NCBI RefSeq assembly: GCF_965208895.1
Contig: NZ_OZ242363.1
Coordinates: 1,307,105 to 1,371,104, forward strand
DNA: 64,000 nucleotides
Direction: 5' to 3'
Source of the DNA: Candidatus Poriferisodalis sp.
GTDB lineage: Bacteria > Actinomycetota > Acidimicrobiia > Acidimicrobiales > Poriferisodalaceae
The position numbers and the translations under genes are program-made. Shown piece after piece: positions 1 through 15,878 of the stretch; the stretch's first letter is position 1, and every line of letters starts with the position of its first letter. The notes beneath the pieces were generated by a model. That model was not told the origin of the DNA. It was given only the letters and a program-made list of their open reading frames with translations, and ran no database searches.

Positions 1-1312
1 TCGCGATCGCGCGTTCACGCACCGCCAGCGATTGCTCACCAATCAGGAGTTGGCAACCGATTCCAGAACGCCGCAGTCGCTCGCTGAGCTGCCGCAGCGG
101 ATCGATGGTGAAGGAGAACACCACGGTCTTGCGCCCGCGAGCAGCTGCGGCCTGCACCAGACCGCTCGCACGATCCAGCTTCGCGCTGTCGCCGGATACC
201 GGCTCCCAATCACAGATGGTTCTCAGTCGGCCGAACAATGCCAGGAAGTCGCCCGGGCCGCTCGACGACAGGCTCCGAATCGCCTCGTTGTAAGCAGCGC
301 GCTGCGCCGGGAGCATCTCGCACTCGACTGTGTGCTCGACAGCAGTCGGCAGCTCGGGAAGCACAGATTCCTTCGTGCGTCGCAGCAAGTAGGGACGAGC
401 GCGAGCACGCATCGTTTCTAGTCCGAGCCGGTCATCGTCGATCGAATACAGACGAGGCTCCAACAGCGACAACAGGCAGGCCAGGTCAGCTGCGTCCCGC
501 TCAACGGGCGTGCCGGTCAGCATCCACAGGCGGGGAGTGACGAGTCGGCGCATGGCCTGACTCAACTGAGAGTCCGATTTGCGTAGTCGGTGCGCTTCGT
601 CGGCCACGATCAAACTGGGAGGTTGACGCGCCAAGTGTCGCCAGAGATCGCGTACGTCTTCGTAGCTGGCGAGCACTGCGTGTGCTCGGGCTGCGGCACG
701 GTGCCAGTCACTGTCCGCGAAACCGCCGCCGAGCCGGTCAAGCCCAAGGACCGTCAGTTCGGGCGCCCATCGGTGAAACTCAGCATCCCAATTTGCGATC
801 AGTGTTCGCGGCGCCGCCACGAGACACGTTCTCAATCTTCGAGCGCGGTACAGCCTCCGGATGGCGGCGATCACCTGTACCGTCTTGCCAAGGCCCATAT
901 CGTCGGCAAGCACGGCGCGGTTGCGTTGCAGAAGAAAACCGGTACCGCTTCGTTGGAACGGATACAGGGAGTCTTGAACTCTGCGCGGTAACAACAATGG
1001 CACTACGCGCCGCAATGCGCGGTCGTAGTCACGCTCATGCCCCGGAGCGCAATTGAATGTCCATTCCAAGGTTCCCTCGCGCAAACCGCGAACCTTTCGG
1101 GCAACTGCAGCGTCATTCGCAATGAGCTCAAGAACGGCCGCTACGAGTCGCCGATCGCCCGATGGAACAGCAATCTCGGTGTGCTGCTCGTAGCAAATAT
1201 TGAGGAATCCCCATTCGCCCCGATGCTCTAGTTGCGCGAGCACGACATCCGAATCTGGCCACGGGCGCACATAGGCGCGCTTCATGGCCGGAACATGACG
1301 TAGCGCGCTCAT
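1..1312 (-). CDS. SNF2/Swi2-family helicase, partial (C-terminus runs off the window start); candidate restriction-side helicase of the Ssp locus
   Basis: Absent from the ORF track because it has no stop inside the window. My manual reverse-strand translation is open from ATG 1312 to position 1. It reads ..AVLADDMGLGKTVQVIAAIRRL.. (motif I), ..SLIVADEAHRLRK.. (motif II, DEAH at 590-601), ..RLWMLTGTPVERD.. (motif III) and ..RPYLLRRTKESVLPELP.. (SNF2_N hallmark). Confidence 0.8.
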   Translation of the reverse strand, partial: MSALRHVPAMKRAYVRPWPDSDVVLAQLEHRGEWGFLNICYEQHTEIAVPSGDRRLVAAVLELIANDAAVARKVRGLREGTLEWTFNCAPGHERDYDRALRRVVPLLLPRRVQDSLYPFQRSGTGFLLQRNRAVLADDMGLGKTVQVIAAIRRLYRARRLRTCLVAAPRTLIANWDAEFHRWAPELTVLGLDRLGGGFADSDWHRAAARAHAVLASYEDVRDLWRHLARQPPSLIVADEAHRLRKSDSQLSQAMRRLVTPRLWMLTGTPVERDAADLACLLSLLEPRLYSIDDDRLGLETMRARARPYLLRRTKESVLPELPTAVEHTVECEMLPAQRAAYNEAIRSLSSSGPGDFLALFGRLRTICDWEPVSGDSAKLDRASGLVQAAAARGRKTVVFSFTIDPLRQLSERLRRSGIGCQLLIGEQSLAVRERAIA

Positions 1313-1370
1313 ATCCCTGCAGGAACAGGCTGCTCACAGCATCGTTCGGTAGTGACTGGCACGGGCGTTC

Positions 1371-2777
1371 CTACACGAGGAGCCCGGCCTCGATCTCTGT
1401 CCACAGCGACTCGACCTCCTCGCCGGCGTCAAGCGGAAGCATCATCTCCCACGCGGCGCGCAGCCCGGTGCTGCCGGAAATGTCGTCTTCGGCATGCTGG
1501 TCCAGCCCAAGTTGCCATCGCAGGATCCGCTCGGCTACCCGCAGGCGAGCCTTGCGGTCTTCGTTGGTAATGCGCCAAGCCCCGTCTTCGGCGCGAACTA
1601 GGAGCAGGTGCCTCCACGGCGCTGAGTGAGCCTCCCAATTGATCCGGTCGAGCGGCCGGAGCGCATCCTCAGCCGCCACGGCATCTAGTTCCGCAGCCAC
1701 ACCTGATGTCTGCTGTCGTGCAATCGCCTCGTTCAGCATGTCCCGCGCCAATCCCACTACGAGCAGCTGAACGATCGGCCAAAACAGAACGTTGTCACGC
1801 GTGTCGCCCTCAAGGTCGGCCCCGTGATCGCGCATGCGCGCCGGGTCTTCAGACAAGACCGGCAAAGCGGTTATCAAGCCATCCCAACAAATCGTCAATT
1901 CTGCACCAAGTGCTTCGATCTCGTCGTCGTCTGGCCGAAAACGCTTGTAGTCGCCGAATTTATCGCCGTGTGCGCCCCAGCCAAGATTACGGCGATCCGG
2001 TGTATACAACCATTCAATATTGAGTCGATACAGCATCTCCAGACTCGTCCAGTGGCTCGATCCTGGTCGTACGTTCTTTCCAGGTTCCATTTTGATTCGA
2101 TCAGAGGTGAACTGGTCACTTCCAGCGCGAAAGAACGGATGTTCTGTTACAAGGCGACGTGTGATGATCGCCAATGAGTCATCCTCGTCCATTACAATGT
2201 TCTCAAACTCGGACATATTCTTCGCATAGCGATTGAGATGTCCAAAGAGCCGACGGTAACGGACCATAAACTCTTGAAGATCTTCGTGGTATCGAGGAGT
2301 CACAATGACAACCGAGGCCTCTTCGTCACGGAATCCCTGTGGCGCCGACCAATCACTCTCGCCGTCCACAAGCGAACGGATTGCTGCGAGCCGGTGCTGA
2401 CCATCAAGGGCATAGTACTGTTGTCCGCCATCGAACGTCAGCACCCCGAACGCCTCTGTCAAACGCCGATCGCCACGCAAGATCCGGAACTCCGGAATAT
2501 CTTCGATGCTGACCGGATACCACTGAGGTTCACCGTCAAACGCGGCGACGACAAGCGAGTTGAAGAACCTGTCCTTGTGCTTTGCGAGATAGCTTGCGAT
2601 CTCACCATGGGAACGTGAACGCTTGAGTTGACGTTGGATTGCCGCCGAAAGTTCGGTGGGTCCGTGGATTTCTTCGGCGAACTTGACGTTCTCGGCAAGC
2701 TCGCGCATGGACATCCGCACCATGTAGTATTCCCAGCTTCCCATCTTTGCCCGAATAGCCGGATATATCTGAGTCAC
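1371..2777 (-). CDS. DGQHR-domain protein (DndB-like / ParB-fold family)
   Basis: The 468-aa ORF carries the family signature ..QQYYALDGQHRLAAIRSL... It lies directly upstream of the SNF2 gene on the same strand. Sampled lines are about 47-50% GC. Confidence 0.8.
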   Translation of the reverse strand: MTQIYPAIRAKMGSWEYYMVRMSMRELAENVKFAEEIHGPTELSAAIQRQLKRSRSHGEIASYLAKHKDRFFNSLVVAAFDGEPQWYPVSIEDIPEFRILRGDRRLTEAFGVLTFDGGQQYYALDGQHRLAAIRSLVDGESDWSAPQGFRDEEASVVIVTPRYHEDLQEFMVRYRRLFGHLNRYAKNMSEFENIVMDEDDSLAIITRRLVTEHPFFRAGSDQFTSDRIKMEPGKNVRPGSSHWTSLEMLYRLNIEWLYTPDRRNLGWGAHGDKFGDYKRFRPDDDEIEALGAELTICWDGLITALPVLSEDPARMRDHGADLEGDTRDNVLFWPIVQLLVVGLARDMLNEAIARQQTSGVAAELDAVAAEDALRPLDRINWEAHSAPWRHLLLVRAEDGAWRITNEDRKARLRVAERILRWQLGLDQHAEDDISGSTGLRAAWEMMLPLDAGEEVESLWTEIEAGLLV

Positions 2778-2843
2778 TTCACCTACTCCTAGATTAGTTT
2801 AGGTCTGATTGTGGCTTCGCCATGAGGCTGAACCCAATAGCAC

Positions 2844-3533
2844 TCACACACGTTGAGGCTCGCCAAGTCGAGCGATGAGGGGCCGCCCTCGCGGCATGCT
2901 GCGATTCGCGGGCGGCGACAGCACCCGAACTAACTCCGACTCGGCATCACGAAGCCACGTCGCAGAATCATCAGAGTGAGCATCTGGTACCACTGTGAAT
3001 GCGAAGTTCAAATAGCCGAATATCGTATGGCAACGGACGATCAGGGGGTTCGGTGACTCCGGATTCGCATGCTGCAGAAAGCGGCGCCGCAGGTTGTCGG
3101 AACGACCCGCGTAGATGGCATTGACCAAGTCTGCGGGAATCTGATAGTTCCTCGCGAGACGCTCTCGTTCTGTCAGCAGCAAGTAGACCCCCGGGCGAGT
3201 CGGGATGCTGTCCCGATACAGGCTGTTGAGTGGCTTGCGCCTCCATTGTGCGCCCCGAAGCACCTCGGCCAATTGGCGCCAATCAGCCGGTTCGAGGGAC
3301 CAACCATCGAGAGGCATGCCCTCACCGGCTTCCGTCGTTATGCGGAGGTAGCGAACGCTCATGAGGCCGAGCCATCGCGTGTGCCCCAACTGATTGATTC
3401 GGGGCAGGTGCCACCTCGAGGTGGGTTGAATCCCGCTTCGCAGGCGCGGCAACATGCGCCTGCAACCGCCGTGCTGTTCGAACTCCGCTGAAACGTTGAC
3501 CTGACGCTGTGAATTCAACGTCTCCCGCGGCAA
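2844..3533 (-). CDS. GIY-YIG nuclease-domain ORF, probably the C-terminal part of a frame-shifted larger gene
   Basis: GIY-YIG pattern ..RPGVYLLLTERE..(x)..AIYAGRSDNLRRRFLQH.. followed by ..AESELV.. and ..PPANR... The frame is open up to 3650 with no ATG/GTG/TTG before the TTG at 3533. Confidence 0.65.
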   Translation of the reverse strand: MPRETLNSQRQVNVSAEFEQHGGCRRMLPRLRSGIQPTSRWHLPRINQLGHTRWLGLMSVRYLRITTEAGEGMPLDGWSLEPADWRQLAEVLRGAQWRRKPLNSLYRDSIPTRPGVYLLLTERERLARNYQIPADLVNAIYAGRSDNLRRRFLQHANPESPNPLIVRCHTIFGYLNFAFTVVPDAHSDDSATWLRDAESELVRVLSPPANRSMPRGRPLIARLGEPQRV

Positions 3534-4977
3534 CCGAGATTTGAGCTGCTCGAGTTCGATGCTTGAATTGCTCCGGGCCGAGGAAGGAAACTTCAGCTGA
3601 GCCGTGTACCACGAGCCCGACGCTCGTCCCTGCCCTCGCTCCCAGACCCCTCAGCGCCGCCGCGATTCGGCCAATCTCGGGTCCGTGAATCGATGTCTTG
3701 CGCCAAATCACCGACACGGCAGGGCATCCCGCTGGCGACTTGACCGCAGCCGACGCCTTCCGTCCGAAGCCTGCGCCGAGCGCGACCGATACCTCAGGCG
3801 GAACGTTCGTGAGGCTGTAGCCGTGTAGGAATCTGTCCTCTACCGCGAACGTCCACACGGGTTCGCCCGCGGCCGTGACAGCGTCGGCGATGTCATCGAT
3901 GACGCCCTGCACAGTGGGGGCGTGTGTGGCCTCCCGGACCCATTCATGCTCGACGACGAAGGCCGGTGTCTCCACGTAAGCCCGAACGCTGGCCTCTTTG
4001 ACTCCGAACAACCGCGGGATCTCGTCGAGCAAACGGCTTAGCCTGGTGGAACCGCCGTCCTCGTTGATGCGTTGGCGAATCTCGGCTGGGATCCCCTCGT
4101 ATACGTCGTCAACCCAATCGTCGAAGCCCCAGGTGGTCTTGGAAGCCCGAACTACACCCCCCATCCCCGCGAGCACGGCATCCACCCGAAACATTGGCCC
4201 TTCGATCTCCGGTCGCAGCCGATCCTCGATCTCCGCCTTCGTCGCCGGTCGGCCAATCGACATCAGTGCGGCCGCGACCTGTGCCCGGCGAGTCGACGCG
4301 AGGACCAGCACGCCACACACCCTCGTCAGTCCGGCGACCGACAGCATCTCTGCCCAGTCGTCACTCCAGCGTTGGCCCAACTCCGAGCGGCGCAGTCGTT
4401 CCTCGGCAACGCATCCGAAATCATCGCTGAACTCTCTCGCCAGCGCCGCAAGTTGACGTGCTGCGGCAACGGCTCTGCGACTCGTCCAGATTCCGCCATT
4501 ATCTTGGTAGCCGAGTTCCACCATGAGTCGTCGCGAGATGATGCGGCCCGCGAGGTCGTCAGCCCCTCCCGTGAGCGCAGCGATGGCGCCTCGGAGGCGT
4601 TCATCATCCGCGAAATCGCCCAACCAGTCCGTCAGAGGCGAAATAACTTGGCCAAGAAATGGCCCGAGCGCTTCGTCGATCCGTGACCGCAGTTTCGATT
4701 CGATGCCGCGGACCCGTTCTCCGGTCCGACGAACCCAACGGCCGATTTCGGCCAAGGTTGCCGGCTCTGCAGCGGCGATGCGGTTCTTGAGCACGATTAC
4801 ATCGACGTCATTGGCTTCGGCGATGAGCTGCCTTACTGCGCTGGTTGCATCGCGAATGATGTCGGCAATTTCCGAGTCGTTGTCCTGACGAAGTGCCGAC
4901 AGTGGCGTTGAGCTGGCCGGCTCTACCCGCCTCCCAACTGCGTCACCGTTGCTGTACCGGGACCGACCACTGCTCAC
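3322..4977 (-). CDS. Hypothetical protein with a sigma-70 region-4-like helix-turn-helix; the real coding part probably ends near 3600
   Basis: ..EPATLAEIGRWVRRTGERVRGIESKLRSRI.. resembles sigma-70 region 4.2. GTG 4977 overlaps the sspD stop as GTGA; ATG 4995 is an alternative start. The first 53 codons of the track ORF overlap sspD and look spurious. GC3 collapses downstream of about 3600. Confidence 0.55.
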   Translation of the reverse strand: MSSGRSRYSNGDAVGRRVEPASSTPLSALRQDNDSEIADIIRDATSAVRQLIAEANDVDVIVLKNRIAAAEPATLAEIGRWVRRTGERVRGIESKLRSRIDEALGPFLGQVISPLTDWLGDFADDERLRGAIAALTGGADDLAGRIISRRLMVELGYQDNGGIWTSRRAVAAARQLAALAREFSDDFGCVAEERLRRSELGQRWSDDWAEMLSVAGLTRVCGVLVLASTRRAQVAAALMSIGRPATKAEIEDRLRPEIEGPMFRVDAVLAGMGGVVRASKTTWGFDDWVDDVYEGIPAEIRQRINEDGGSTRLSRLLDEIPRLFGVKEASVRAYVETPAFVVEHEWVREATHAPTVQGVIDDIADAVTAAGEPVWTFAVEDRFLHGYSLTNVPPEVSVALGAGFGRKASAAVKSPAGCPAVSVIWRKTSIHGPEIGRIAAALRGLGARAGTSVGLVVHGSAEVSFLGPEQFKHRTRAAQISVAAGDVEFTASGQRFSGVRTARRLQAHVAAPAKRDSTHLEVAPAPNQSVGAHAMARPHERSLPPHNDGSR

Positions 4978-5822
4978 AGCGCGCACACCGTGCATTGCTC
5001 GTCTGAGTCTTCTTCGTCGAATGCGTCTGCGAGGACTTCGATCAGCGGGATATTGCGTCGGGCAGTCTTGGCGCGGGCTAGAGCGGCTGCGTGGCGATCG
5101 AGGATCTCGGTACGGCGGGAGCGGAGCTGGACGAGCGTTTCGCCTCCGCTCCATGTGTATTGGCGGCCTGCCATGGCTCGATCGCCGAAGTCGGCATTGC
5201 CGTCGACGCCAGCGTCGAGCAACATTTTCTGTTCAATGGCGATGGCTCTCTCGAAGAGTTCGGGATGGCGGTCGGCGAGGCCGATCCACTCGGCCTTTCG
5301 CTGGTAGAAGCAGAAGTAGCAACCTGAGCGCGTCCGCCATTCGTAGTAGGCGGGCAGGCCGATGCCGGCATCGTCGAGGATCTGCATGACGCCGTCGTGA
5401 TCGATACCGTCGTCGACGAATGGGAAACGGCTCTCAATGTTCGGCTTCGTTGAGATGTAGCCCTTGCGGTTCGCTTCGTCTGCTCGGATGGCTACGTAGG
5501 AGATTGCGGGCTCATCGCCGATCCACGCTTCGATCGGCTTGATCTTCATCACCTTGGTGCACCAGCGCATCTGCGGTGACGGCAGCGCCCCGCGGAATAC
5601 CTCGAACCAGTGGTCGAACCCCCGCTCTGAGTTCAGACGGATGATCGGCTTGCCCAGGATGACTTCGAGGCGTGTCAAGAATTCGTAGGTCTCGGGAAGC
5701 TCGGCGCCCGTGTCGCAAAAGAAGTACTCCATCTCCGGCACCCGCTCGCGCAGATAGAGCGCCAGTGCGCTCGAATCCTTGCCACCGGAAATACCGCAGA
5801 TGTGGCGAACCGGCGCGGTCAC
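4974..5822 (-). CDS. sspD: PAPS-reductase-like PP-loop ATP pyrophosphatase (SspD-like; DndC-related)
   Basis: The N-terminal PP-loop reads ..HICGISGGKDSSALALYL... The 282-aa size is right for the family. It has a 4-nt overlap with the upstream ATPase ORF. The operon context includes DUF4007 and a cysteine desulfurase. Confidence 0.8.
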   Translation of the reverse strand: MTAPVRHICGISGGKDSSALALYLRERVPEMEYFFCDTGAELPETYEFLTRLEVILGKPIIRLNSERGFDHWFEVFRGALPSPQMRWCTKVMKIKPIEAWIGDEPAISYVAIRADEANRKGYISTKPNIESRFPFVDDGIDHDGVMQILDDAGIGLPAYYEWRTRSGCYFCFYQRKAEWIGLADRHPELFERAIAIEQKMLLDAGVDGNADFGDRAMAGRQYTWSGGETLVQLRSRRTEILDRHAAALARAKTARRNIPLIEVLADAFDEEDSDEQCTVCAL

Positions 5823-6484
5823 AGCACGCCCTCTGCGATCTTGGCCGACGGCGGGTCGGCATCGGTCCGCGCGGCGCCAGCCGGGGCCAGCAGGCGCTCT
5901 GCGAGAATCGCCAGTGCTGCGTTGTGGGCTCGTTGCGGTGAACCGACTGCTTCGGTGATTCTGGCAAGCAGGTCGTCGACTGCGGGTTCAACGGCGGATC
6001 GCTCATCGTGTGCGACGCCAACGAGGCGCGCCTCTTCGGCGCCTGAGGGATCGGTCACAGAAATGCGCAATGCCTCGAATGGCAGACCGTCGGCTGCTCG
6101 CCGCTCGGCATGCAGCGCCCTCAGCCGGTTGAACGCCGCAAGCCTCTGCGGCAGTCGCGCGCGAACAGCCGCCAAGTCTCGATCGTTCCACTCGGTCGGT
6201 GCCTTGCCTGCGAGCACGGTGGCGACTGACGCCATCCAATCGTGGTCGTCCTCGTAGACGTCGTTGGAGAGCGCCAGCACAAAGCTGCGCATCTGCGGGT
6301 CGAGCACCTCATCTATGAGTCCGACTGCTGGACCCGACACTGCAACGCGAGCACGCTCACCGGCGGCTGCGAGCAGTTCAGCGCATAGCTCGAGAATTAA
6401 CTCGCGGCAGCGTCCGGTGAGCTCGTCGAGGCTGAGCGCGAGGTTGTTCGCGAATTCATCGCGATTACCCCCCCCCCCCCCCCA
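5819..6484 (-). pseudogene. sspC: C-terminal ~220 codons of the SspC-like ATPase, displaced into another frame by the poly-G tract
   Basis: In this frame the tract reads W-GGGGG-NRDEFANNLALSLDELTG.. and stays open to 5819, ending in a 4-nt overlap with sspD. The part of the track ORF upstream of the tract (6485-6562) overlaps the real sspC frame and is junk. Confidence 0.6.
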
Positions 6485-9410
6485 TCTCAGGTGTGCCGAC
6501 AGCGGCATCCGTCGCAGTCGCAGGAATGGGGGCGTATCCGAGAGCATCGGGCAGCGCTTCAAACAGCAGCACGTCTGGCTCAGTCGCCTCGGTGAGCGCG
6601 TCTCGTACAGCGAGCGCCCTATCGCTCAGGTGCGACGTGCAGCGAGTCCAGTTCTCGAGCCTGCGAGTTCGAGCCGCGAAGTGCCGGGTCACCGACAGCA
6701 CATTACCGACCCGGCGATTGCCGATGCCGGCGTCAATGCCAAAGCGTGCCCCAAGCGCATCGAGTGCGGCCTTGCGGGGGCCGGAGACGTTCGCAAAGTG
6801 CTTGACCTCGAAGTGCTCCGGATTGCGCACCATGCGTTCCGAGAGGTCAGCCGACAGGCCGAGCTGGAAGGTGCCGTGCTCGTAGATCGCCATGCGGTCG
6901 GCACGTGCGAGCAACGCGGCGGTGACGATCACGGGGATGACACCGGCCTTCACGCCATACGGAGGCGATGCCAAGGTCATGTACAGGTCTCGGACATTGA
7001 GGCGCTTGGTCTTCGCGGACTCAAATACCTGTTCGATCGCCTGCCATGCAGGGATGAGGCGCAACCGCTCGATTTGTCGGCTGCTTTGCGATGGCTTGCT
7101 GCCGCGGCGCACTCGCGGCTTGCCGAAGATGAGATCACCGCCGGCCTTCTTGGGGCGATGCAGTCCGGCATGTTTCAGCGCCGCCTCGTACATGGCGACC
7201 TCGGGTCCGTAACCCTTGAGGCCGAGCCGATACTCGGCGCTGCGCTCGATCATGGCTTCCAGCAAGATCCGACGGGCCTTGGCTCCTTGCGAAGTCAGAT
7301 CGGAGCGGTTCAGCATCTCGTTGGGTACACGCGGCGCATCTGGGTAGGCGAGATCTGCCGCTTCCGAGAGCGGCGCACTCCCCCGTCCTGGTCGCAGCAC
7401 AACCCCGGCGTCGTCATCGAGCAGCACCCATCGGCAACTGTCTGTGCTGAATGCTGAAGTCACCGCCGCTTCAAGCTGTACGCGCGCCGACGCCAGCCGC
7501 TCGCCCACTTCGCGTCGGGCGACCCAGTCAGTTTCCACCTGTGGAGCCGACAGAACGTCGCTCAACGCAGCCACGGCGCGCGCAGCGCTATCTAGCGCTG
7601 CAACATCTTCGGGCAGAGCCGCAACCACCGGTTTTGACTGCAGCCGACGCACCCGGTCCGAATCGTCCAGTGCACGGCCAGAACTGCGAAGCGCTTCCTC
7701 AGAGAGCCTCGGTAGTCCGTCGCCCGGATTCGCCACCAGCAGCAGCTCACCGTCAATCGGATCGAGCGGCGCCGGCGGCACGACGGTCTCGTCGCCGTTC
7801 ACGAAACGGCGGCTGAACAATCGCACCACGTCGTTCTGGGCGCTGTGTCGAGCAGCAACTACTGGCTCGAGCTCGTAGACGGCGCCGAGCACTCGGTGCA
7901 GCGGCCGATCAGTGGCTCGGTCGTATGCCGCTTCGAGCAGCTCGGAGATATTGACGTCGGATCCTTGCCAGATTCGGTATTCGTCGGCGAATGATCGGTA
8001 CGTCACCAAACCGCGCTGTTCAAGGCCGGCGAGCACATCCTTCGACCCAGAGTCGACGAGGTCGAGGACAGGAGCGCTGGCCCGCACTGCGCCAGAAGCG
8101 GAGACGAGGTTCAGTAGCGCCACTGTCTTGGCGACGCGTTGCTCCGCAGACGACATCCCGTTGGCATCTCGCAGCCGGCTTGCGATCTCGGTCCATCGGC
8201 TTGAGCGACCAACGGCGCTGACGCCGGCGCCGCCCGTGGCCATGAAGTAGTCGTAAACAGCTTCGGGGCCGATCGAAGGCACGTCGTCGGAGCAGTCGAC
8301 CTTGATGTCCGCTGCGAGCGAAGCCACTGTCCCTGACTCGCTGCCGGCCAAGAAGGAGAACAGCGTTCGCTCGTGCTGGCCGAATCGGTTGCACAGCTCG
8401 GGCAGAACAAGCGTCGAGACGGGGTGAAGCGGCCAGCACGCCGCGATCGTTCCTGGGTCACTGAGATCGGTGATGCCTGCCGACGCAAGCAACTTCGCAT
8501 GGTGCGTGGCCCACTTGTCGATGCGCTGGTGCAGCTGTTCGTCGCTGACTCGGAACGCCTGAGCTATCAGCGCTCGCGTCTGAGGGGCCGATTCGGTGAA
8601 CGCGATATCGACGAAGCGGCCTTGCACCTTCGCCCAGTCGCGACGCCGACGATCGTCGACATCGGCGAGGTATTCCTCGAACGACAAGTGCTGCAGGGTG
8701 ACCACGAAGATCGGCAGCCCGGCGCCCTGCCCGGCCTCGGCCAGCCGTTGCAGGAGATAGGTGTCGCTGGACTCGTTGCCGCCTGCGGCCTCGAGGTTCT
8801 TTCCGAACTCATCGATGACGATGAGCAGTGGGTCTTGCGAGGCCATGCAGCGCGCAATCTCTACGAGTTCGCTCACCGATGGGTCAACCGGGTCTTCGGT
8901 TCGCCTGACTCGCCGCTGCGCAAGCTTGAGCAAGGACGATGCCGGGAACTCGGCTGAACCTGGAACCTTGCCGTAGCGGCGCGTCACTGCTCGATGAAGA
9001 CCGCGCAGCACCGTTCGTGCAACTGGTTCACGATCGGCAGTGACCAGCGCTCGATAGAAGCCTCGCGAACGGCTGCGGTGCGCCGAAAGCGCCTGATTCA
9101 GCTTGTTCTTGGCCGTTGGCGATGCTTCTGCGATCTTGTCGAGCGCGCGATCTCGTGCGATACCCGCAGGTCCGAACGCCGCATCGAGCAGCAAACCCAG
9201 CGACGACTTGCCAGAGCCGTACGGTCCTGTGACCGACCACGCACCGCCAGCGGGCCCGAGCGCGGAAGACGCAATGCGTTCGACCACATCGAGCGCCCGC
9301 GCCGTCACTATGTAGCCGTCGAGCGGTTCGGCGTTCTCGGCGTCGCGTTCGAGGTTCGCCGATCGGGCGAACTGACGCCGGACGCTGAGCACGTCAGCCA
9401 GCACGGTCAC
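6465..9410 (-). CDS. sspC: Large P-loop ATPase, SspC-like (N-terminal 981 codons; ends in the poly-G tract)
   Basis: Walker A is ..VTGPYGSGKSSLG.. and Walker B is ..PLLIVIDEFGKNLE... It has a 4-nt overlap with the DUF4007 gene. The product ends ..PEMGGGGG-TAA inside the homopolymer. Confidence 0.7.
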   Translation of the reverse strand: MTVLADVLSVRRQFARSANLERDAENAEPLDGYIVTARALDVVERIASSALGPAGGAWSVTGPYGSGKSSLGLLLDAAFGPAGIARDRALDKIAEASPTAKNKLNQALSAHRSRSRGFYRALVTADREPVARTVLRGLHRAVTRRYGKVPGSAEFPASSLLKLAQRRVRRTEDPVDPSVSELVEIARCMASQDPLLIVIDEFGKNLEAAGGNESSDTYLLQRLAEAGQGAGLPIFVVTLQHLSFEEYLADVDDRRRRDWAKVQGRFVDIAFTESAPQTRALIAQAFRVSDEQLHQRIDKWATHHAKLLASAGITDLSDPGTIAACWPLHPVSTLVLPELCNRFGQHERTLFSFLAGSESGTVASLAADIKVDCSDDVPSIGPEAVYDYFMATGGAGVSAVGRSSRWTEIASRLRDANGMSSAEQRVAKTVALLNLVSASGAVRASAPVLDLVDSGSKDVLAGLEQRGLVTYRSFADEYRIWQGSDVNISELLEAAYDRATDRPLHRVLGAVYELEPVVAARHSAQNDVVRLFSRRFVNGDETVVPPAPLDPIDGELLLVANPGDGLPRLSEEALRSSGRALDDSDRVRRLQSKPVVAALPEDVAALDSAARAVAALSDVLSAPQVETDWVARREVGERLASARVQLEAAVTSAFSTDSCRWVLLDDDAGVVLRPGRGSAPLSEAADLAYPDAPRVPNEMLNRSDLTSQGAKARRILLEAMIERSAEYRLGLKGYGPEVAMYEAALKHAGLHRPKKAGGDLIFGKPRVRRGSKPSQSSRQIERLRLIPAWQAIEQVFESAKTKRLNVRDLYMTLASPPYGVKAGVIPVIVTAALLARADRMAIYEHGTFQLGLSADLSERMVRNPEHFEVKHFANVSGPRKAALDALGARFGIDAGIGNRRVGNVLSVTRHFAARTRRLENWTRCTSHLSDRALAVRDALTEATEPDVLLFEALPDALGYAPIPATATDAAVGTPEMGGGGG
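6468..6483. repeat. Homopolymer: 16 consecutive C (poly-G on the coding strand) at the sspC frame break
   Basis: Direct count in ..gcgatta-cccccccccccccccc-atctcag... Confidence 0.95.
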
Positions 9411-10483
9411 CGCCCCGGCCCCCCGTCGCGTCGCGCCTGCCGCACATGCAAACGAGTCAGAACATCTTCCGTTACGTCGTTGTCGCTCGGTTCGTCTGCG
9501 CGAACCGTCGGCTCGTCGCCCAGAGGCCCGGCAATTGGATCAGGGGGCACGACGCCGTAGTGCTCGGACAGCAGTTCGGCCGCAACCACAGCAGCGTCGC
9601 CCTTCCATGAGAGCTGGGGCACCCCTGTCGGTGTCGTGAAGTCCAACGAGTCCGCGACCTCGACTGCCGGGGTTAGAGCCGTGAACAAGTCGGCGGCATT
9701 CAACTTGAACACGCTCGCCGGCGAGCCGCTCTCCGCGACGATTCGTTCGAGTGTGATCGTCTGGCCCGTCAGGCCGGTGCGCGCGATCCAGTCCAGCACG
9801 GCGTGTGCCGCAACCGCAGATGCCAGTGTCGGCTTCAAACCCAGCTTGTAGCGGTGGGCGCCGGTCGCCTCGGACCGGCCGACCAGACGAAGTTCCCGCA
9901 GAGGGCAGTCTGCTGCATCGTCGACAGTCGCTCGGCTAGTACGAGACGTCGGGCCATACGTGCGCATGAAAGCGCTGAGGTCCTTCTCGACCGCGGACTG
10001 GCTCGGCTCCTTCCAGTCGGGCACCGAACGCAGTTGCGTCATCACGGACCTGCCGAGATCTTCCACCTCGAACTCCACCGCATTGAAGTCGCAGAGCGCC
10101 AACCACCACACTGGCAATCGGCACGGGCGAGCCAGCAGGCGCCAGTGCAGCAGCCACAGCGATGCCGGATCCTCCATCCACGGATCCCAGCCGTCTTCAC
10201 CAAACAGCGCTTCGCCAAAGCGAGTCGGCATCACGATGGTCGGCTTGCGACCCGACCGAGCGTCGGGATCAGGAACTTCGACAACCACCTTGGCCGCGAG
10301 CCCCCAGAAACGAATGGCGCGAACCATGTTCTTGCCCACGCCCAGGCGCACCGGAGCGTCCTCGCTCGCAAAGACACGCGGGTCAGCAGTAGCCGCTACA
10401 TACGCCTTCCTGAACCAGCCGTAGCGAGGATGGAATGTCTCATGGCGTGCGAATACCGGCTCCGCGGCCTCGCTCAGCTGCAC
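9407..10483 (-). CDS. sspB: DUF4007-family protein (SspB-like)
   Basis: ..ARHETFHPRYGWFRKAY.. and ..RLGVGKNMVRAIRFWGLA.. are the motifs I associate with DUF4007. The gene sits between the cysteine desulfurase and the ATPase. Confidence 0.75.
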   Translation of the reverse strand: MQLSEAAEPVFARHETFHPRYGWFRKAYVAATADPRVFASEDAPVRLGVGKNMVRAIRFWGLAAKVVVEVPDPDARSGRKPTIVMPTRFGEALFGEDGWDPWMEDPASLWLLHWRLLARPCRLPVWWLALCDFNAVEFEVEDLGRSVMTQLRSVPDWKEPSQSAVEKDLSAFMRTYGPTSRTSRATVDDAADCPLRELRLVGRSEATGAHRYKLGLKPTLASAVAAHAVLDWIARTGLTGQTITLERIVAESGSPASVFKLNAADLFTALTPAVEVADSLDFTTPTGVPQLSWKGDAAVVAAELLSEHYGVVPPDPIAGPLGDEPTVRADEPSDNDVTEDVLTRLHVRQARRDGGPGR

Positions 10484-10484
10484 G

Positions 10485-11663
10485 TCACGCTGCCTCTGTA
10501 GTCATGAGCCGAACGTAACGAACGGCTGTGACAACCTTCTCGGCGGCGGCGGCAATTTCGCTCGATGTGGTGAATCGTCCGACGCTGAACCGCACCGACT
10601 CGAACGCCGCTTCACGCGACAGCCCCATCGCCGTCAGTACCGGCGACGGTTCGATCGCACCGGTGCTGCAGGCGCTCCCCGCGGATGCTGCGACAGGGTC
10701 CATGTTCACGAGCACGGCATCCGAATCCGTTCCGGCGAAGCGGAGGTTGGCGGTATTGGGGAGCCGACGTTCGATGTCGCCGTTCTGTTCGACCGCAGGC
10801 AGAGCGTCGATCAGCGCATCAACGAATCGATCTCGCAACGCGCCGACTCGCTCGGCTTCCGTTTCCAGCTCATTGGCTGCAAGCTCCGCAGCGACTCCCA
10901 GGCCGACGATGCCCGCGACATTCAGCGAGCCCGAGCGAAGGCCGCGCTCATGGCCACCGCCCCACAGCATCGGGTGCAAAGCAGCGAGGGCTTCACGAGT
11001 CCCGACCAGGGCGCCCACGCCCGTCGGGCCGCAGATCTTGTGACCACTCAGCGAGACCAAGTCACAGCCGAGCGTCGTCATATCGAACGGCAGCCGACCA
11101 ACCATCTGGGTGGCATCGCAGTGGAACAGCGCCCCTGCCTGATGAACGATCTGGGCAATCTCCTCGATGGGATTGAGGACGCCCGTCTCGCTATTGGCAG
11201 CCATGACCGACACCATCACGGGGCGTCCCGTCTCTGCCAGCAAGTCAGCCAGCGCGTCGACGTCAACAAACCCGCCAGGCGTGACGGCGGCAGTGCGGCG
11301 CTTGCAACGACCGGTCGCGGCGAGAGCCTCTGCCGTTCGGCTGACAGATGCATGCTCCACCGCGGAGACCACCAGCATCGTTGTCGTATCCGGCTGAGAT
11401 CCGTGGCTCGCCGGGGCGAATCCGCCGAGAGCGAGGTTGTTGGCCTCCGTAGCGCCGGCGGTGAAGACGACCCCACCCGGTGCTCCGCCCACGAGAGCCG
11501 CCACCTGTTCACGGGCCTCACTGACCGCTGCGGCCTGCCGCTGGCCGAATCGATGGGCTGACGACGCATTGCCGAACCCGTCGGTCATGGCTTTCGTGAC
11601 AGCGTCCGCCACCCGCGGATCGCAAGGCGCGGAGGCGTTGTAGTCGAGATAGATCTCGTTCAC
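10485..11663 (-). CDS. sspA: Class-V aminotransferase-fold cysteine desulfurase (IscS/NifS/DndA-like; SspA by context)
   Basis: ..IYLDYNASAP.., ..SGHKICGPTGVGAL.. (PLP lysine region) and ..AASAGSACSTG.. (active-site Cys loop). It is the first gene of the operon. Confidence 0.8.
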   Translation of the reverse strand: MNEIYLDYNASAPCDPRVADAVTKAMTDGFGNASSAHRFGQRQAAAVSEAREQVAALVGGAPGGVVFTAGATEANNLALGGFAPASHGSQPDTTTMLVVSAVEHASVSRTAEALAATGRCKRRTAAVTPGGFVDVDALADLLAETGRPVMVSVMAANSETGVLNPIEEIAQIVHQAGALFHCDATQMVGRLPFDMTTLGCDLVSLSGHKICGPTGVGALVGTREALAALHPMLWGGGHERGLRSGSLNVAGIVGLGVAAELAANELETEAERVGALRDRFVDALIDALPAVEQNGDIERRLPNTANLRFAGTDSDAVLVNMDPVAASAGSACSTGAIEPSPVLTAMGLSREAAFESVRFSVGRFTTSSEIAAAAEKVVTAVRYVRLMTTEAA

Positions 11664-11682
11664 TCATGACCCCGGGTCGGTG

Positions 11683-11775
11683 GCAGCACTGGCCTTGCGG
11701 CGAGCGTAAGCGAAGCACCTCCGAGCACCGGGGACCCCACGAATTTCGCTGCAGCCGGAGCGAGGTGCCATCAGC
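11683..11775. repeat. Direct repeat copy 1 (core 11687-11744) flanking the DUF3800 cassette
   Basis: The core cactggccttgcggcgagcgtaagcgaagcacctccgagcaccggggaccccacgaat matches 12806-12863 at 55/58 positions. Weaker, gapped similarity continues for about 30 nt. Confidence 0.85.
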
Positions 11776-11851
11776 CCACATCGCAGCGGCGGATCCGGGC
11801 AGCGAGAAATTCTCAGCAGACCGCGAACGCCGGGCTCGTAGTGTCACGTCG

Positions 11852-12562
11852 ATGGCGACCCGACTGCTGTTCTTGGACGACTCGGGCAAGCCTGCGGCGA
11901 ACGACGGCACCATGGCGGTGGTCATCGGCGGTTTCTCGATCGCCGCCGAAGACGTCCCCGATCTCAGTCGGAGAATCGTGGGCGCCAAGGCGCGCTTCTA
12001 TCCAAATCGCGGGAACCCGACGGACTGGGAAGTCAAGTCCACAGACACGATCTCACCGAATGCATGGAGGCGCCGCAAGAACCGCGACTTCATTGACGAG
12101 CTGACCCGCATCCTCGAGCGACTGTCATGCACTTCGTACACCGCAGGCATCCGCAAGGCCAACATGCTGCATCCGATGACGCTCAAGACCACCGTCCCGT
12201 TGCAGCTTCAGGCCCTCGTCGAACACTTCGCCGTGGAGTGCAAGACGCAGCAGGCGACCGGAATCGTGGTGTCGGACTGGTCCAATCATCAACTCGACGA
12301 ACACGCCAGCCGAAGCGTCGCGAGCTATGCCGCGTCCTACCGGCTCAACATCCATCCCGGCGTCTACTACGCCAGCTCCCACACGACTCAAGCCATCCAA
12401 GCCGCCGACCTCATCGCAGGCATTCGACGCAGGGTGCTCGAAGGCGATCAGCGGTTGGCAGCAGTCGGTCGCCGACTCTCATCGCTGAGCGCCGTTGCCG
12501 ACGGAAACGCATATCGCACCCATGCGTGGCGCACATTCACGAACCAGATCCTCCTGTTCTGA
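11852..12562 (+). CDS. DUF3800-family protein
   Basis: ..MATRLLFLDDSGK.. at the N-terminus and ..SHTTQAIQAADLIAG.. near the C-terminus fit DUF3800. The start is trimmed to ATG 11852; the track ORF N-terminal extension covers the repeat. Confidence 0.65.
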   Translation: MATRLLFLDDSGKPAANDGTMAVVIGGFSIAAEDVPDLSRRIVGAKARFYPNRGNPTDWEVKSTDTISPNAWRRRKNRDFIDELTRILERLSCTSYTAGIRKANMLHPMTLKTTVPLQLQALVEHFAVECKTQQATGIVVSDWSNHQLDEHASRSVASYAASYRLNIHPGVYYASSHTTQAIQAADLIAGIRRRVLEGDQRLAAVGRRLSSLSAVADGNAYRTHAWRTFTNQILLF

Positions 12563-12668: not shown

Positions 12669-12698
12669 GGGACCCCGGACCGCACGGGGTCCCTTTTT
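12669..12698 (+). terminator. Rho-independent terminator-like hairpin
   Basis: gggaccccg-gaccgca-cggggtccc gives a 9-bp perfect stem, followed by ttttt. It lies about 105 nt downstream of the DUF3800 stop. Confidence 0.7.
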
Positions 12699-12801: not shown

Positions 12802-12890
12802 GCCCCACTGGCCTTGCGGCGAGCGTAAGCGAAGCACCTCCGAACACCAGGGACCCCATGAATGACTCGCCGCGGCCAGAGTGCATCACC
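12802..12890. repeat. Direct repeat copy 2 (core 12806-12863)
   Basis: See copy 1. The three core mismatches are g>a, g>a and c>t. Confidence 0.85.
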
Positions 12891-13080
12891 GTCGGCCCTC
12901 GAGACAGCTGCGGATCTCCGCAATGAATCGGGGGATGTCCTCGCTGATCCCCTGCCGAGAAGCAGCTACATCAGTCACGGCGCGATTGACTCGGCGCGCA
13001 CCGCCTCCCGAGATGACGGAAGCACGGGCTGGCGACACCAACGCCGCAATTCGCCGCGAGCGATGCGAGAGTAGGGGCAC
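12886..13080 (-). pseudogene. Short high-GC3 ORF (64 codons), possibly the 3' remnant of a gene that once preceded the repeat and sspA
   Basis: GC3 is 16/20 in 12901-12960 for this frame, against 10/20 in the other two. The tail ..AASRQGISEDIPRFIAEIRSCLEG.. loosely recalls class-V aminotransferase C-termini (..SLGRFTTEEEID..). Only 30 nt separate it from the divergent CMD gene. Confidence 0.25.
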
Positions 13081-13109
13081 TTACCGGCGAACGCTCAGGG
13101 GAGAACATC

Positions 13110-13688
13110 ATGCGGTTGGACGACATCACACCTGAAGACTTGACACCGGAGCAGGCAGCGGTGCTCGACGCCATTCGGGGCGGGCCTCGAGCGGCCTCGG
13201 GGCGGGGCCCGAAGTTGCAGGGCCTCGTCGGGCCCTACGGCGTATGGGTGCGGGCGCCAAGTGTGGGCATCGAAGCCCAAGCGTTGGGGGCCGCGGTGCG
13301 GTTCGCGTCGTCGCTGCCCGAGAGCGTCAAGGAGGCGGCCATCTGCACCGTGGGCGCCTTCCACGGGGCCAAGTTCGAATTCGCTGCGCATCGCATCCTC
13401 GGCCTCGAAGCCGGCCTTGACCCAGCCGACCTCGAAGCGCTGCGCGTCGGCGACGCGCCGAGCTTCACCGGCGACGAGGCCACCGCCCACGCCGTCGCCG
13501 CCGAACTTCTCCGCGAGCACCGTCTCAGCGACGCCACCTACGCCACCGCCACAGAAGCCTTCGGCGAAGCAGGCCTCGTCGAGCTCGTCACCACGGTGGG
13601 CTACTACTGCCTGATCTCCCACACGCTCAACGCATTCGAGATCCCCCTGCCCGCCGACTGGGACGACCCCTTCCCCGACCAAGCCTGA
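13110..13688 (+). CDS. Carboxymuconolactone decarboxylase (AhpD-like) family protein
   Basis: The 192-aa ORF has CMD-like helices (..AAICTVGAFHGAKFEFAAH.., ..ELVTTVGYYCLISHTLNAF..). A ggggag RBS precedes the ATG. Confidence 0.6.
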   Translation: MRLDDITPEDLTPEQAAVLDAIRGGPRAASGRGPKLQGLVGPYGVWVRAPSVGIEAQALGAAVRFASSLPESVKEAAICTVGAFHGAKFEFAAHRILGLEAGLDPADLEALRVGDAPSFTGDEATAHAVAAELLREHRLSDATYATATEAFGEAGLVELVTTVGYYCLISHTLNAFEIPLPADWDDPFPDQA

Positions 13689-13814
13689 CCAATCAGCACC
13701 GACCACTCCCTCGAATGAGGCGCGCCGCGAAGCTCCATGAGCCGGTCATGGGACTCGCTACACCCCCACCCCGAATAGTGCGGGAATAGTGGCGGAGCGC
13801 GGCTGCCGACACAC

Positions 13815-13894
13815 AAAACCGCAGGTCAGGGACGTGATACGAACATTTGTTGGTACCCCCTAAAGGTACCGGAATAGTGCGGGAACAGTGCGGG
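13815..13894 (+). repeat. ~80-nt intergenic repeat, unit A
   Basis: aaaaccgcaggtcagg..gaacatttgttggtaccccctaaaggtaccggaatagtgcgggaacagtgcggg. A partial tail copy lies at 13771-13795. Confidence 0.8.
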
Positions 13895-13952
13895 TGGTCG
13901 ATTGCGCGCATAAGTTCGGGGTGAGTCGGGACGCAAAGACCGGGGAGGGCAC

Positions 13953-14459
13953 GTGGGCGAGGCGACTGACGCGCAGGAACGAGAAGTCATGGACTGGCGG
14001 CGCTACGGCATGGCCGTGCGTGGGCTGGCGCAGATGATCGCCGATGACGGCTACCGGCCCCAGATGATCCTGGCCATTGCCCGGGGCGGGCTGTTCTGCG
14101 CGGGCTCGCTCGGCTACGCGTTGTCGGTCAAGAACATCTACGTCATGAACTGCGAGTACTACACCGGCGTCGACGAGCGGCTCCAGGTGCCGATCATGCT
14201 GCCGCCCACGCCCGACCTGGTCGACCACCGCGACTCCGACATCCTCATCGCCGACGACGTGGCCGACACCGGCCACACGCTCAAGCTGGTGTACGACTTC
14301 TGCCTGCCTCGGGTGCGCAGCGTGCGCACCGCTGTGCTGTACGAGAAGCCGTGGTCGACCGTCACCTGCGACTGGGTGTGGCAGCGCACCGACCTGTGGA
14401 TCAACTTCCCTTGGTCCACCGAGCCCCCCGTCGTCACCGACGAGCAAGCCCGCGCCTGA
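13953..14459 (+). CDS. Phosphoribosyltransferase (hypoxanthine/xanthine-guanine PRT-like)
   Basis: The PRPP-binding loop reads ..DSDILIADDVADTGHTLK... The size is 168 aa. Confidence 0.75.
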   Translation: MGEATDAQEREVMDWRRYGMAVRGLAQMIADDGYRPQMILAIARGGLFCAGSLGYALSVKNIYVMNCEYYTGVDERLQVPIMLPPTPDLVDHRDSDILIADDVADTGHTLKLVYDFCLPRVRSVRTAVLYEKPWSTVTCDWVWQRTDLWINFPWSTEPPVVTDEQARA

Positions 14460-14668
14460 AACGCTGCTGCTGACCCTGGAGCCGCGTTCGCACACGGGCC
14501 GTGAGCGTCTCATGCATGACCATGCAGCCGGCGTCCGCGATACGAACGATCGTGGAGGGCCCCACCCGGCCGCCGCTGGCCGCCTGCCCGACAAACGAGG
14601 ACGACCACTTCACCGATGAGACCCCCCGAATAGAACGCGAAGAGAACATGACGACTCGGCTCGTCACG

Positions 14669-14749
14669 AAAAACCGCAGGTCAGAGGCCCGAGACGAACA
14701 CTTGTAGGTACCCCCAAAGGAACCGGAATAGTGCAGGAATAGTGTCGGG
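14669..14749 (+). repeat. ~80-nt intergenic repeat, unit B
   Basis: aaaaaccgcaggtcagaggcccgagacgaacacttgtaggtacccccaaaggaaccggaatagtgcaggaatagtgtcggg. A partial tail copy lies at 14626-14647. Confidence 0.8.
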
Positions 14750-14767
14750 CACTTGCAACGCGACGCG

Positions 14768-14857
14768 AAACCGCAGGTCAGAGGCTTGATGCGAACACTT
14801 GTAGGTACCCCTCAAGGAACCCGAATAGTGCAGGAATAGAGCAGGAATGGTGCGGGG
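14768..14857 (+). repeat. ~80-nt intergenic repeat, unit C
   Basis: aaaccgcaggtcagaggcttgatgcgaacacttgtaggtacccctcaaggaacccgaatagtgcaggaatagagcaggaatggtgcggggg. Confidence 0.8.
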
Positions 14858-14913
14858 GCGCAGCGGGGCGGACTGAACGGCCCCGCGACGCCGCCCCCGG
14901 CCGCCGTGGCAGG

Positions 14914-15843
14914 ATGGCGCCCATGACCGATGCCACCGATTCCGACGCTGCTCCGAGCACGACTGGCTCGCAGGCCGTGACGGCCCACTCTGCGCGCACC
15001 AAGCCGGGCGTGCTCGGCGTGCTAATAGCGCTGGCAGGGCTGGTGGTGGTGGCAGCGGGCATCGTGGGCGTGGCCGTCGTGGCGTGGCCGTTCGTGTTCC
15101 TGCTGCCTGTCGGAGCGATTTTCTTCGTCGGGGCTCTGCCGGGCCAATACCTCGTGCAGCCCAACGAGGCGCTCGTGCTCATTCTGTTCGGCCGGTACCG
15201 GGGCACCGTCGAGCGGCCCGGCTGGCATCTGGCCAATCCCTTCACCCGCATGGAGTCGCGCAAGATCTCCCTGCGGGTACACAACTTCACGACCAGCGTG
15301 TCCAAGGTGAACGACGCCGAGGGGAACCCCATCGAGATCTCTGCGGTGGTCGTGTGGCGAGTGGTGGACACCGCCGCTGCAGTGTTCGAGGTCGACGACT
15401 TCGAGGACTTCGTCTTCGTCCAGAGCGAGACCGCCATTCGCCATCTCGGAACGCAGTACCCCTACGACGACTTCGAAGGCGACCGGGTGTCGCTGCGTTC
15501 GGACCCCGACATCGTCGGCGCCACGCTCCACGAAGAGGTGCAGGAACGCCTCGAACGGGCCGGGGTCGAAGTCATCGAGACCAGGCTCAACCACTTGGCG
15601 TACGCCACCGAGATCGCCGAGGCCATGCTGCGCCGCCAGCAGGCTGCCGCAGTGGTTGCTGCGAGACGCACGATCGTGGAAGGGGCCGTCGGCATGGTGG
15701 AGGATGCGCTGGAGCTGCTTGCGCAGCGCTCGGTGGTCGAACTTGACGAGCAGGCCAAAGCAGCCATGGTGGCCAACCTGCTGGTCGTGCTCACCAGCGA
15801 ACAGCAGACCACCCCGGTCGTCAACACCGGCGCCTCGGCCTAA
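14914..15843 (+). CDS. SPFH/Band-7 (stomatin/prohibitin-like) membrane protein
   Basis: An N-terminal TM segment is followed by ..VQPNEALVLILFGRYRGTVERPGWH.. and a typical SPFH core. Confidence 0.75.
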   Translation: MAPMTDATDSDAAPSTTGSQAVTAHSARTKPGVLGVLIALAGLVVVAAGIVGVAVVAWPFVFLLPVGAIFFVGALPGQYLVQPNEALVLILFGRYRGTVERPGWHLANPFTRMESRKISLRVHNFTTSVSKVNDAEGNPIEISAVVVWRVVDTAAAVFEVDDFEDFVFVQSETAIRHLGTQYPYDDFEGDRVSLRSDPDIVGATLHEEVQERLERAGVEVIETRLNHLAYATEIAEAMLRRQQAAAVVAARRTIVEGAVGMVEDALELLAQRSVVELDEQAKAAMVANLLVVLTSEQQTTPVVNTGASA

Positions 15844-15878
15844 CGCGCCGACACAGCGTTCGCTCCCCTTTCGCCCGG

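Follow-up and report, generated by a model that had tools for sequence, protein, structure and literature searches.

A GIY-YIG, DGQHR, and SNF2 gene trio as a predicted effector module of an Ssp-type DNA phosphorothioation system in Candidatus Poriferisodalis

We analyzed a 64,000-nucleotide (nt) stretch of DNA (hereafter the window) from Candidatus Poriferisodalis sp. (Acidimicrobiia; GCF_965208895.1, contig NZ_OZ242363.1, positions 1,307,105–1,371,104), a genus name that implies a sponge symbiont as the host. The window carries the sspABCD genes for DNA phosphorothioate (PT) modification in one operon with genes for a predicted helix-turn-helix (HTH) protein, a GIY-YIG nuclease, a DGQHR-domain protein, and an SNF2-family ATPase; we refer to the last three genes as the trio and to GIY-YIG plus DGQHR as the pair. 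What is new is an undescribed module, predicted to be an effector, on a known PT-based Ssp system: going by gene order, the trio fills the slot that SspE, SspFGH, or PbeABCD holds elsewhere. The best explanation of the locus, and in our view a probable one, is that sspABCD is a PT writer switched by a homopolymer tract within sspC and that the trio, coupled to this writer by the HTH protein, forms an effector similar to a split SspE with an added translocase. No description of the trio, of an HTH adaptor, or of phase-variable ssp genes was found in the full-text searchable literature, a scope that stops short of subscription literature and newer tool releases; neither the trio nor phase-variable ssp genes are described in PMC8092258, PMC6459918, PMC10853773, PMC12839542, or PMC12914056.

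An ssp Operon Continuing into GIY-YIG, DGQHR, and SNF2 Genes

Open reading frame (ORF) listing and translation reveal that positions 1–11663 of the window form a single, tightly packed operon on the minus strand, with the following features (profile matches are given as E values unless in bits).

10485–11663, minus strand: sspA, class V cysteine desulfurase, 392 residues (PADLOC SspA 1.4e-124, DndA 1.1e-120; PF00266 1.6e-69)
9407–10483, minus strand: sspB, DUF4007 protein, 358 residues (PF13182 2.3e-72; PADLOC SspB 3.5e-91; 4-nt overlap with sspC)
5819–9410, minus strand: sspC, BrxC/PglY-like P-loop ATPase, assembled as two ORFs (PADLOC SspC 6.5e-271 and 4.5e-23; Walker A motif GPYGSGKS)
6468–6483, minus strand: G16 homopolymer inside sspC (C16 on the plus strand), frameshift site and candidate phase-variation tract; sole homopolymer of at least 8 nt in the 64 kb
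4974–5822, minus strand: sspD, PP-loop PAPS-reductase-like enzyme, 282 residues (PADLOC SspD 9.8e-108; PF01507 4.5e-10; SGGKDS motif)
3322–4977, minus strand: predicted multi-domain DNA-binding protein (the HTH protein), 551 residues (sigma-70 region-4-like HTH, about four winged helices, C-terminal B3-like beta barrel)
2844–3317, minus strand: predicted small GIY-YIG nuclease, 157 residues (ATG at 3317, 4 nt past the HTH stop; PF01541 family)
1371–2777, minus strand: DGQHR-domain (DndB/ParB-superfamily) protein, 468 residues (PF14072 1.8e-24; TIGR03187 92.3 bits, cut-off 58.85)
1–1312, minus strand: SNF2-family ATPase, N-terminal 437 residues, gene running off the window start (PF00176 8.4e-43; GLGKT and DEAH motifs)

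All of the genes named in a first-pass annotation, made from the sequence before this analysis, are present on this strand and at the positions that it gave, and the three 4-nt start/stop overlaps that it reported (9407–9410, 5819–5822, and 4974–4977) are real. The remaining operon junctions measure 1–66 nt: the ssp and HTH genes overlap or lie within a few nucleotides of one another, and the trio genes are spaced by 58–66 nt. A promoter and terminator scan inside the operon gave signals no better than those of shuffled sequence and no outstanding terminator-like site, and the window gave no matches in tRNA and Rfam scans.

PADLOC and Pfam profile scans were run on ten proteins, i.e. the nine operon ORFs and that of a divergent DUF3800 gene. 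The two agree on a complete Ssp modification module, with desulfurase, DUF4007 protein, BrxC-like ATPase, and PAPS-reductase-like enzyme in one cluster, so that the first four genes are sspABCD, as first proposed; they would constitute the machinery that writes single-strand PT marks on DNA. Assignment of the ATPase and the PAPS-reductase-like enzyme to BREX type 4, which the first-pass annotation had named as an outcome that would overturn its proposal, is rejected, the Ssp models outscoring the Brx models for both proteins (SspC 6.5e-271 versus BrxC 5.7e-91; SspD 9.8e-108 versus BrxP 4.4e-10). Neither PglZ nor BrxL was detected in the operon with PADLOC, the region left of the window start being judged from a 98%-identical contig (L085), which continues with an HNH gene.

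The GIY-YIG ORF, picked out at first pass from a single sequence, is a real conserved gene with intact active-site residues. Its orthologues in 17 related loci are 157–167 residues long, with Tyr58, Tyr69–Gly71, Arg79, Glu126, and Asn138 invariant over 17 sequences and His83 present in at least 90%. In I-TevI and UvrC these residues have their counterparts at the GIY, YIG, Arg, His, Glu, and Asn positions, and the GIY-YIG profile aligns with both proteins over the GIY-YIG-Arg-His stretch. PF01541 is matched by 17/17 orthologues (best E value 1.4e-7; 0.014 for the window protein alone). An exhaustive search returned 229 representative GIY-YIG clusters, those listed being approximately 100–255 and mostly 140–170 residues long; a word-indexed search with the same protein returned three relatives only.

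The DGQHR protein belongs to a subfamily of at least 1581 homologous clusters and carries a D125-G-Q-H-R129 motif that is invariant in 17 sequences. It is related to DndB but scores far below the DndB equivalog model (TIGR03233, 61.9 bits versus a cut-off of 328). In the closest genome relative (L002, 12042–14507) the DGQHR frame is approximately 350 codons longer and contains a 337-residue ORF on the opposite strand; this copy may be disrupted by an inserted element.

The SNF2 protein has Snf2/Rad54 matches in the PDB with E values down to 6e-27. Motifs I and II of the SNF2 ATPase lie in the window and the Helicase_C lobe is seen in L085, where the full-length orthologue, at approximately 570 residues, comprises just SNF2_N and Helicase_C. 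Genes for HNH proteins with a ScoMcrA-like sulfur-binding domain (SBD) often follow SNF2 (L001 16320–18284 and 20033–21037; L084 13284–15479; L085 6486–7469; likewise L002, L004, L006, L008, L011, L012, and L050). ScoMcrA-like enzymes are PT-dependent type IV endonucleases. Because an HNH_2 ORF comes after SNF2 in L085, such a gene is probably located just beyond the left edge of the window.

Distribution of the Trio and Comparison with Described PT Partners

A genome scan with the HTH family yielded 80 loci, which by their record titles derive mostly from metagenome-assembled genomes (MAGs) of Acidimicrobiia, Gamma- and Alphaproteobacteria, Acidobacteriota, Chloroflexota, and others; many of these MAGs carry sponge-derived taxon names (Poriferisodalis, Poriferisocius, Spongiisociaceae). 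As determined by tblastn and ORF clustering, the order sspABCD-HTH-GIY-DGQHR-SNF2 is found in 18/81 genome loci (L001–L081) from several phyla, with the ssp genes inverted in L041. We also examined 83 independent, wider loci, comprising three contexts of approximately 50%-identical DGQHR homologues from other bacteria and 80 metagenome loci from apparently varied environments. In 76/83 of these, GIY-YIG is directly upstream of DGQHR (median gap 44 nt); SNF2 was found in 44 of the 46 loci long enough to include it; and each of the 15 loci that extend at least 3 kb to either side carries ssp genes, co-directional or convergent. The trio thus travels with sspBCD as a conserved and widespread unit, and the arrangement is not, as had been supposed, peculiar to this locus.

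In approximately 50 sister loci (within L017–L081) the HTH gene is followed instead by PbeABCD, as in L038 (9233–16647; PbeA 1.6e-148, PbeC 6.8e-44), and often comes after sspABCD; a description of the sspABCD-HTH-pbeABCD arrangement was not found in the literature searched. The writer upstream of HTH is either sspABCD or a third gene set. In L048 (1450–9323) this third set, which precedes HTH-PbeABCD, encodes a PAPS-reductase-like protein (with a weak SspD/BrxP signal), a cysteine desulfurase, PDC-M33A/B-like proteins, a DUF6339 protein, and a protein of approximately 500 residues; it recurs in L042, L046, L049, L058–L062, L070, L073, L077, and L081, and may be another sulfur-modification module.

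In L001–L081 the HTH protein always lies between the PT-modification module and the effector module. It is absent from the 83 wider trio loci save L085 and L107, both close to the window lineage. As judged from this placement, the HTH protein is the fixed element that joins a PT writer to either of two exchangeable modules downstream. Profile scans of the window gave no Pfam or PADLOC match to the 551-residue protein and a weak sigma region-4 signal; among 129 homologues detected, many are longer at the N terminus and many match PF04545 (Sigma70_r4). Its AlphaFold2 model (pLDDT 81, confident over residues 32–480) has local Foldseek matches to tandem winged-helix arrays, sigma region 4, and B3-like barrels (At1g16640 and the N-terminal domain of LlaJI.R1); Foldseek returned no whole-chain match and no enzyme fold, and no catalytic domain was detected. 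Long forms of the protein (700–920 residues) have an N-terminal extension with a signal resembling the helix-hairpin-helix of the RNA polymerase alpha C-terminal domain (PF03118, E value 0.0018; residues 227–275 of P0116, consensus of alignment A1), an extension that the short form in the window lacks.

The genes downstream of sspD map onto no described Ssp partner. With respect to SspE, neither DUF262 nor DUF1524 was detected in the ten scanned proteins (Pfam and PADLOC, the SspE model being without a control), and a six-frame search of the 64-kb window gave a single DGQ[QH]R motif, at 2405, which belongs to the DndB-family protein; SspE is thus rejected, in line with its reported absence at first pass. 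SspFGH is likewise rejected: no window protein matched the SspF, SspG, and SspH PADLOC models at E ≤ 0.01, models which gave 4e-237, 1e-217, and 0 in the control locus L166, and the one-to-one correspondence with these three proteins that was raised at first pass as a possible identity of the locus was not found. A Walker A motif, present in SspF (PMC8092258), was found in none of the HTH, GIY-YIG, and DGQHR proteins. PbeABCD is rejected in that PbeA and PbeC are absent from the PADLOC matches listed for the window proteins (for SNF2, the best 25 of 39), the same models matching L038.

Distant GIY-like plus DndB-like pairs were identified with hhalign probabilities of 92.5% and 90.4%. One is directly upstream of sspFGH in Rhizobium sp. 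K1/93 (L166, pTiK1_93, 12868–23598), and another lies beside a complete dndBCDE-A cluster, which has its own dndB, on a plasmid of Rhizobium sp. NXC14 (L165, 7412–9288). These contexts point to the pair as a general PT-associated unit, beyond the SNF2 context. The first-pass annotation had described SspFGH as including DndB-like and helicase components, which is incorrect, since SspH has an FtsK-like C terminus and SspFGH no DndB-like or helicase part (PMC8092258); a GIY-like/DndB-like pair does, however, adjoin sspFGH in Rhizobium sp. K1/93, a parallel to the co-occurrence of SspE with SspFGH in 36 genomes (PMC8092258).

In the SspABCD-SspE system (Xiong et al., 2020; described in PMC8092258 and PMC9646914) the same four modification genes are partnered by a ParB-superfamily NTPase-type protein and nuclease, and the PT dependence, as opposed to PT blockage, that we propose for the trio would be another shared feature. 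In contrast to SspE, the trio lacks DUF262 and DUF1524, its NTPase-like part is of the DGQHR/DndB family, its nuclease, a polypeptide of its own, is of the GIY-YIG and not the HNH type, and SNF2 is added. SspABCD-SspFGH (PMC8092258) similarly links sspBCD to a multi-gene partner with a DNA motor and has a related pair upstream in Rhizobium sp. K1/93, but the motor of the trio is SNF2 rather than FtsK-like and, whereas SspFGH is toxic without PT, an out-of-frame sspC is apparently tolerated here. The DndCDEA-PbeABCD (CxC ABC-ATPase) system (PMC6459918, PMC10853773), which acts only when PT is present and does no harm in its absence, resembles the trio in combining helicase and nuclease and in its slot after HTH in approximately 50 sister loci; the trio differs in having no HKD-helicase fusion, CxC ABC ATPase, or DndE-like subunit, in having GIY-YIG and SNF2 as separate proteins, and in having a ParB-like protein in place of the ABC ATPase. 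The DGQHR protein shares with DndB the PF14072 family and the DGQHR motif, but is longer (468 residues), is always paired with a small GIY-YIG protein, and is ssp- rather than dndCDE-linked.

The likeness to DndB raises the alternative that the pair, perhaps with SNF2, serves modification, the DGQHR protein limiting or patterning PT as a DndB-like protein while the nuclease and translocase repair PT-related damage or prepare DNA for sulfur insertion by opening or nicking it. The DGQHR protein is indeed a full-length member of the PF14072 DndB family, DndB is described as a negative PT regulator (PMC4507180, PMC10853773), and the occurrence of the pair beside three module types (SNF2, SspFGH, and dndBCDE) is as expected for a general PT accessory. 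However, E. coli needs no genes of this kind for PT when it has sspBCD and a desulfurase (PMC8092258), the match to the DndB equivalog is poor (62 versus 328 bits), and the Rhizobium dnd cluster already has its own dndB besides the pair. Moreover, a conserved GIY-YIG active site and an SNF2 motor are typical effector parts, and in the sponge-symbiont loci the trio sits exactly where PbeABCD sits in the sister loci. We regard a modification-side role as unlikely on balance.

A Homopolymer Tract in sspC

As assembled, sspC is split at the G16 tract into an ORF at 6465–9410 (981 residues, covering positions 2–934 of the 1104-position SspC profile) and an ORF at 5819–6466/6562 (profile positions 938–1104). 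Tract lengths of G16 and G17 truncate the protein, whereas G15 or G18 places sspC in frame, giving 1196 or 1197 residues. Because the G15 version aligns end to end with the SspC of L003 (78% identity), tract length is the only lesion in sspC; the other operon genes are intact. The first-pass annotation thus identified the large P-loop ATPase correctly but missed that the G16 run divides its gene into two ORFs.

Tracts at the same position are found in the four closest genome loci: L002 (G17, 8470), L003 (G14, in frame, 8422), L004 (G16, 8424), and L005 (G15, 8325). In other lineages a poly-C run of C9–C14 is near nt 445 of sspC (L001, L006–L010, L012, L013, L016, and L017), and further sspC tracts occur in other sponge-symbiont lineages (L034, L038, L045, L064, L068, and L078, and L050 at 6707), including G11–G34 near the sspC 5′ end and C18 mid-gene. 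Overall these tracts span 9–34 nt and their frame states are mixed. Over 1.6 Mb of loci, 21/31 G/C runs of at least 9 nt fall in sspC, which makes up 9.5% of the DNA (p = 6e-15). No such run was found in sspC of L082–L164, loci which, except for L085 and L107, come from outside the sponge-symbiont lineage; L085 starts within the C-terminal part of sspC, downstream of the tract position, and is uninformative for the G tract.

Length polymorphism is also apparent among near-identical alleles. The 90%-identity cluster of the window SspC has 13 members, six of them tract-free and all six full length (1194 residues). Of the seven alleles with a tract, three are in frame (one encoding five glycines, two encoding six) and four are out of frame, across two frames. 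The first 960 residues are the same in P0405 (five glycines, in frame) as in P0406 (out of frame), and P0400 and P0403 (six glycines, in frame and one codon longer) are 99.9–100% identical to P0405/P0406. The locus thus combines a repeat that, by its length, determines the reading frame of the gene around it with length variation among near-identical alleles, to which sequencing error may contribute.

The concentration of tracts in sspC across sponge symbionts suggests that the sspC tract is an on/off switch of PT writing, i.e. phase variation, a proposal drawn from comparison of alleles and assemblies. Some full-length SspC could also arise by transcriptional slippage. There is precedent in the Pgl/BREX system of Streptomyces coelicolor, in which phase variation is driven by a run of G in pglX (PMC4365076, citing Sumby and Smith, 2003). 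In both cases a poly-G run lies inside a modification-side gene of a defence system in a high-GC actinobacterium, and SspC is itself a relative of BrxC/PglY. Unlike that of pglX, the tract of the window belongs to a PT system and to an ATPase gene, not to a methyltransferase gene; tracts occur at several positions and in many uncultured sponge symbionts, and switching is predicted from allele lengths.

The tract has another possible explanation, namely that the locus is decaying, the frameshift being an inactivating mutation or a sequencing error and no switching taking place. That sspC is out of frame in the window and in several relatives fits with this, as does the tendency of apparent long-read MAG assemblies to mis-call long homopolymers, and the in-frame share of approximately 7/24 is near the chance expectation of one in three. 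Yet the tract is the sole lesion in an otherwise intact operon, and, as the only long homopolymer in 64 kb, the tract itself is no error. Tracts recur at different sspC positions in different lineages, also in apparent short-read assemblies and with strong enrichment, and the near-identical alleles include two in-frame lengths one codon apart. Long-read error can blur tract length in a given assembly; it cannot explain why tracts exist, why they are concentrated in one gene, or why in-frame variants differ by a whole codon. We therefore consider decay or error improbable as an account of the tract as a whole.

Proposed Mechanism, Setting, and Significance

In the PT-coupled effector reading that we favor, slippage at the sspC tract would change its length and turn PT writing on or off, with the off state represented in the window assembly. 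The HTH protein, found only in the sponge-symbiont lineage, would act as a DNA-recognition adaptor or regulator that couples the writer to the effector that follows, be it the trio or, in sister loci, PbeABCD. Within the trio, the DGQHR protein may stand in for the ParB-like NTPase domain of SspE, sensing PT-marked DNA or nucleotide state. The GIY-YIG protein would supply nicking or cleavage, the job of the fused HNH domain in SspE, and SNF2, a minimal double-strand-DNA translocase, would move the complex along DNA. The resemblance to a split SspE plus an SNF2 motor is proposed because SspE is described as the DndB/ParB-superfamily equivalent in Ssp systems (PMC10853773) and the trio has a ParB-like protein and a separate nuclease.

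We infer PT dependence for the trio, as for SspE and PbeABCD, rather than blockage by PT, as for SspFGH and DndFGH. The reason is that the effector genes stay intact where sspC is out of frame, which suggests an effector that is harmless when PT is missing. In the absence of PT, SspE and PbeABCD neither act nor harm the cell, whereas SspFGH is toxic (PMC8092258, PMC6459918).

Several points weigh against the effector reading. All functions given to the trio are predictions, and the presence of the pair with SspFGH and dnd clusters fits an accessory or regulatory role as well as an effector role. DndB is reported to be a negative regulator of PT modification (PMC10853773, PMC4507180) and not an effector, and the DGQHR protein could be regulatory in the same way. 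The DGQHR model has, as its best relevant Foldseek match, a ParB N-domain (probability 0.96, E value 0.25), which is weak, and no match to SspE, and the DGQHR profile matched no PDB sequences; its relationship to SspE is at this stage an analogy. The SNF2 C terminus and whatever lies beyond are outside the window; contig look-ups by exact sequence with the DGQHR and HTH proteins of the window and with P0016 returned no record, and the missing end was deduced from L001 and L085. Finally, the accession and contig-name style of the window and several relatives suggests long-read MAG assemblies, in which the length of long homopolymers is error-prone, and the off state of the window genome is for that reason provisional.

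The base composition of the operon is not uniform. The GC content at third codon positions (GC3) is 0.63–0.67 in the effector half (0.63–0.65 for DGQHR and GIY-YIG) and 0.69–0.77 in the ssp half; the corresponding GC contents are 0.57–0.60 for the DGQHR and GIY-YIG genes (window 1371–3317) and 0.61–0.66 for the ssp genes. The lower values suggest a separate origin for the effector half. That the trio is an independent defence system merely adjoining ssp genes in defence islands, without PT coupling, is nevertheless very unlikely: although defence genes cluster generally, with ScoMcrA-like SBD-HNH genes, toxin-antitoxin pairs, and others flanking the loci, and although GC3 is lower in the effector half, ssp genes are present in every locus with enough flank, the linkage survives orientation changes and spans many phyla and habitats, the ssp-HTH junctions in the window overlap or are of a few nucleotides with the trio genes following after gaps of 58–66 nt, and the distant pair again adjoins PT genes.

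To the right of the operon, the divergent DUF3800 gene (11666–12562, plus strand), which has no PADLOC match, starts 3 nt from the sspA start codon, a distance that leaves no room for promoters between the two annotated starts. A terminator-like site lies beside it at 12669–12693, and metal-homeostasis genes (cation efflux, Fur-family regulator, ZnuA, and ABC-3 permease) form the right border of the defence locus at 15879–20471.

Among 2,678 sspBCD clusters, a restriction partner was known for only approximately 15% (PMC8092258). If the PT-coupled effector reading is correct, the trio, which goes with sspBCD in sponge symbionts and in soils, lakes, and oceans, would supply the partner of some of the “orphan” Ssp systems and would add a new effector architecture to PT-based immunity, and the sspC tracts would be the first sign of phase-variable DNA backbone modification in the literature searched. 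More broadly, and more tentatively, the trio may represent a new and widespread class of PT-sensing restriction effector, sponge symbionts may possess PT epigenomes switched by hypermutable G/C tracts in sspC, and the HTH protein may be an adaptor with interchangeable effectors, the trio or PbeABCD.

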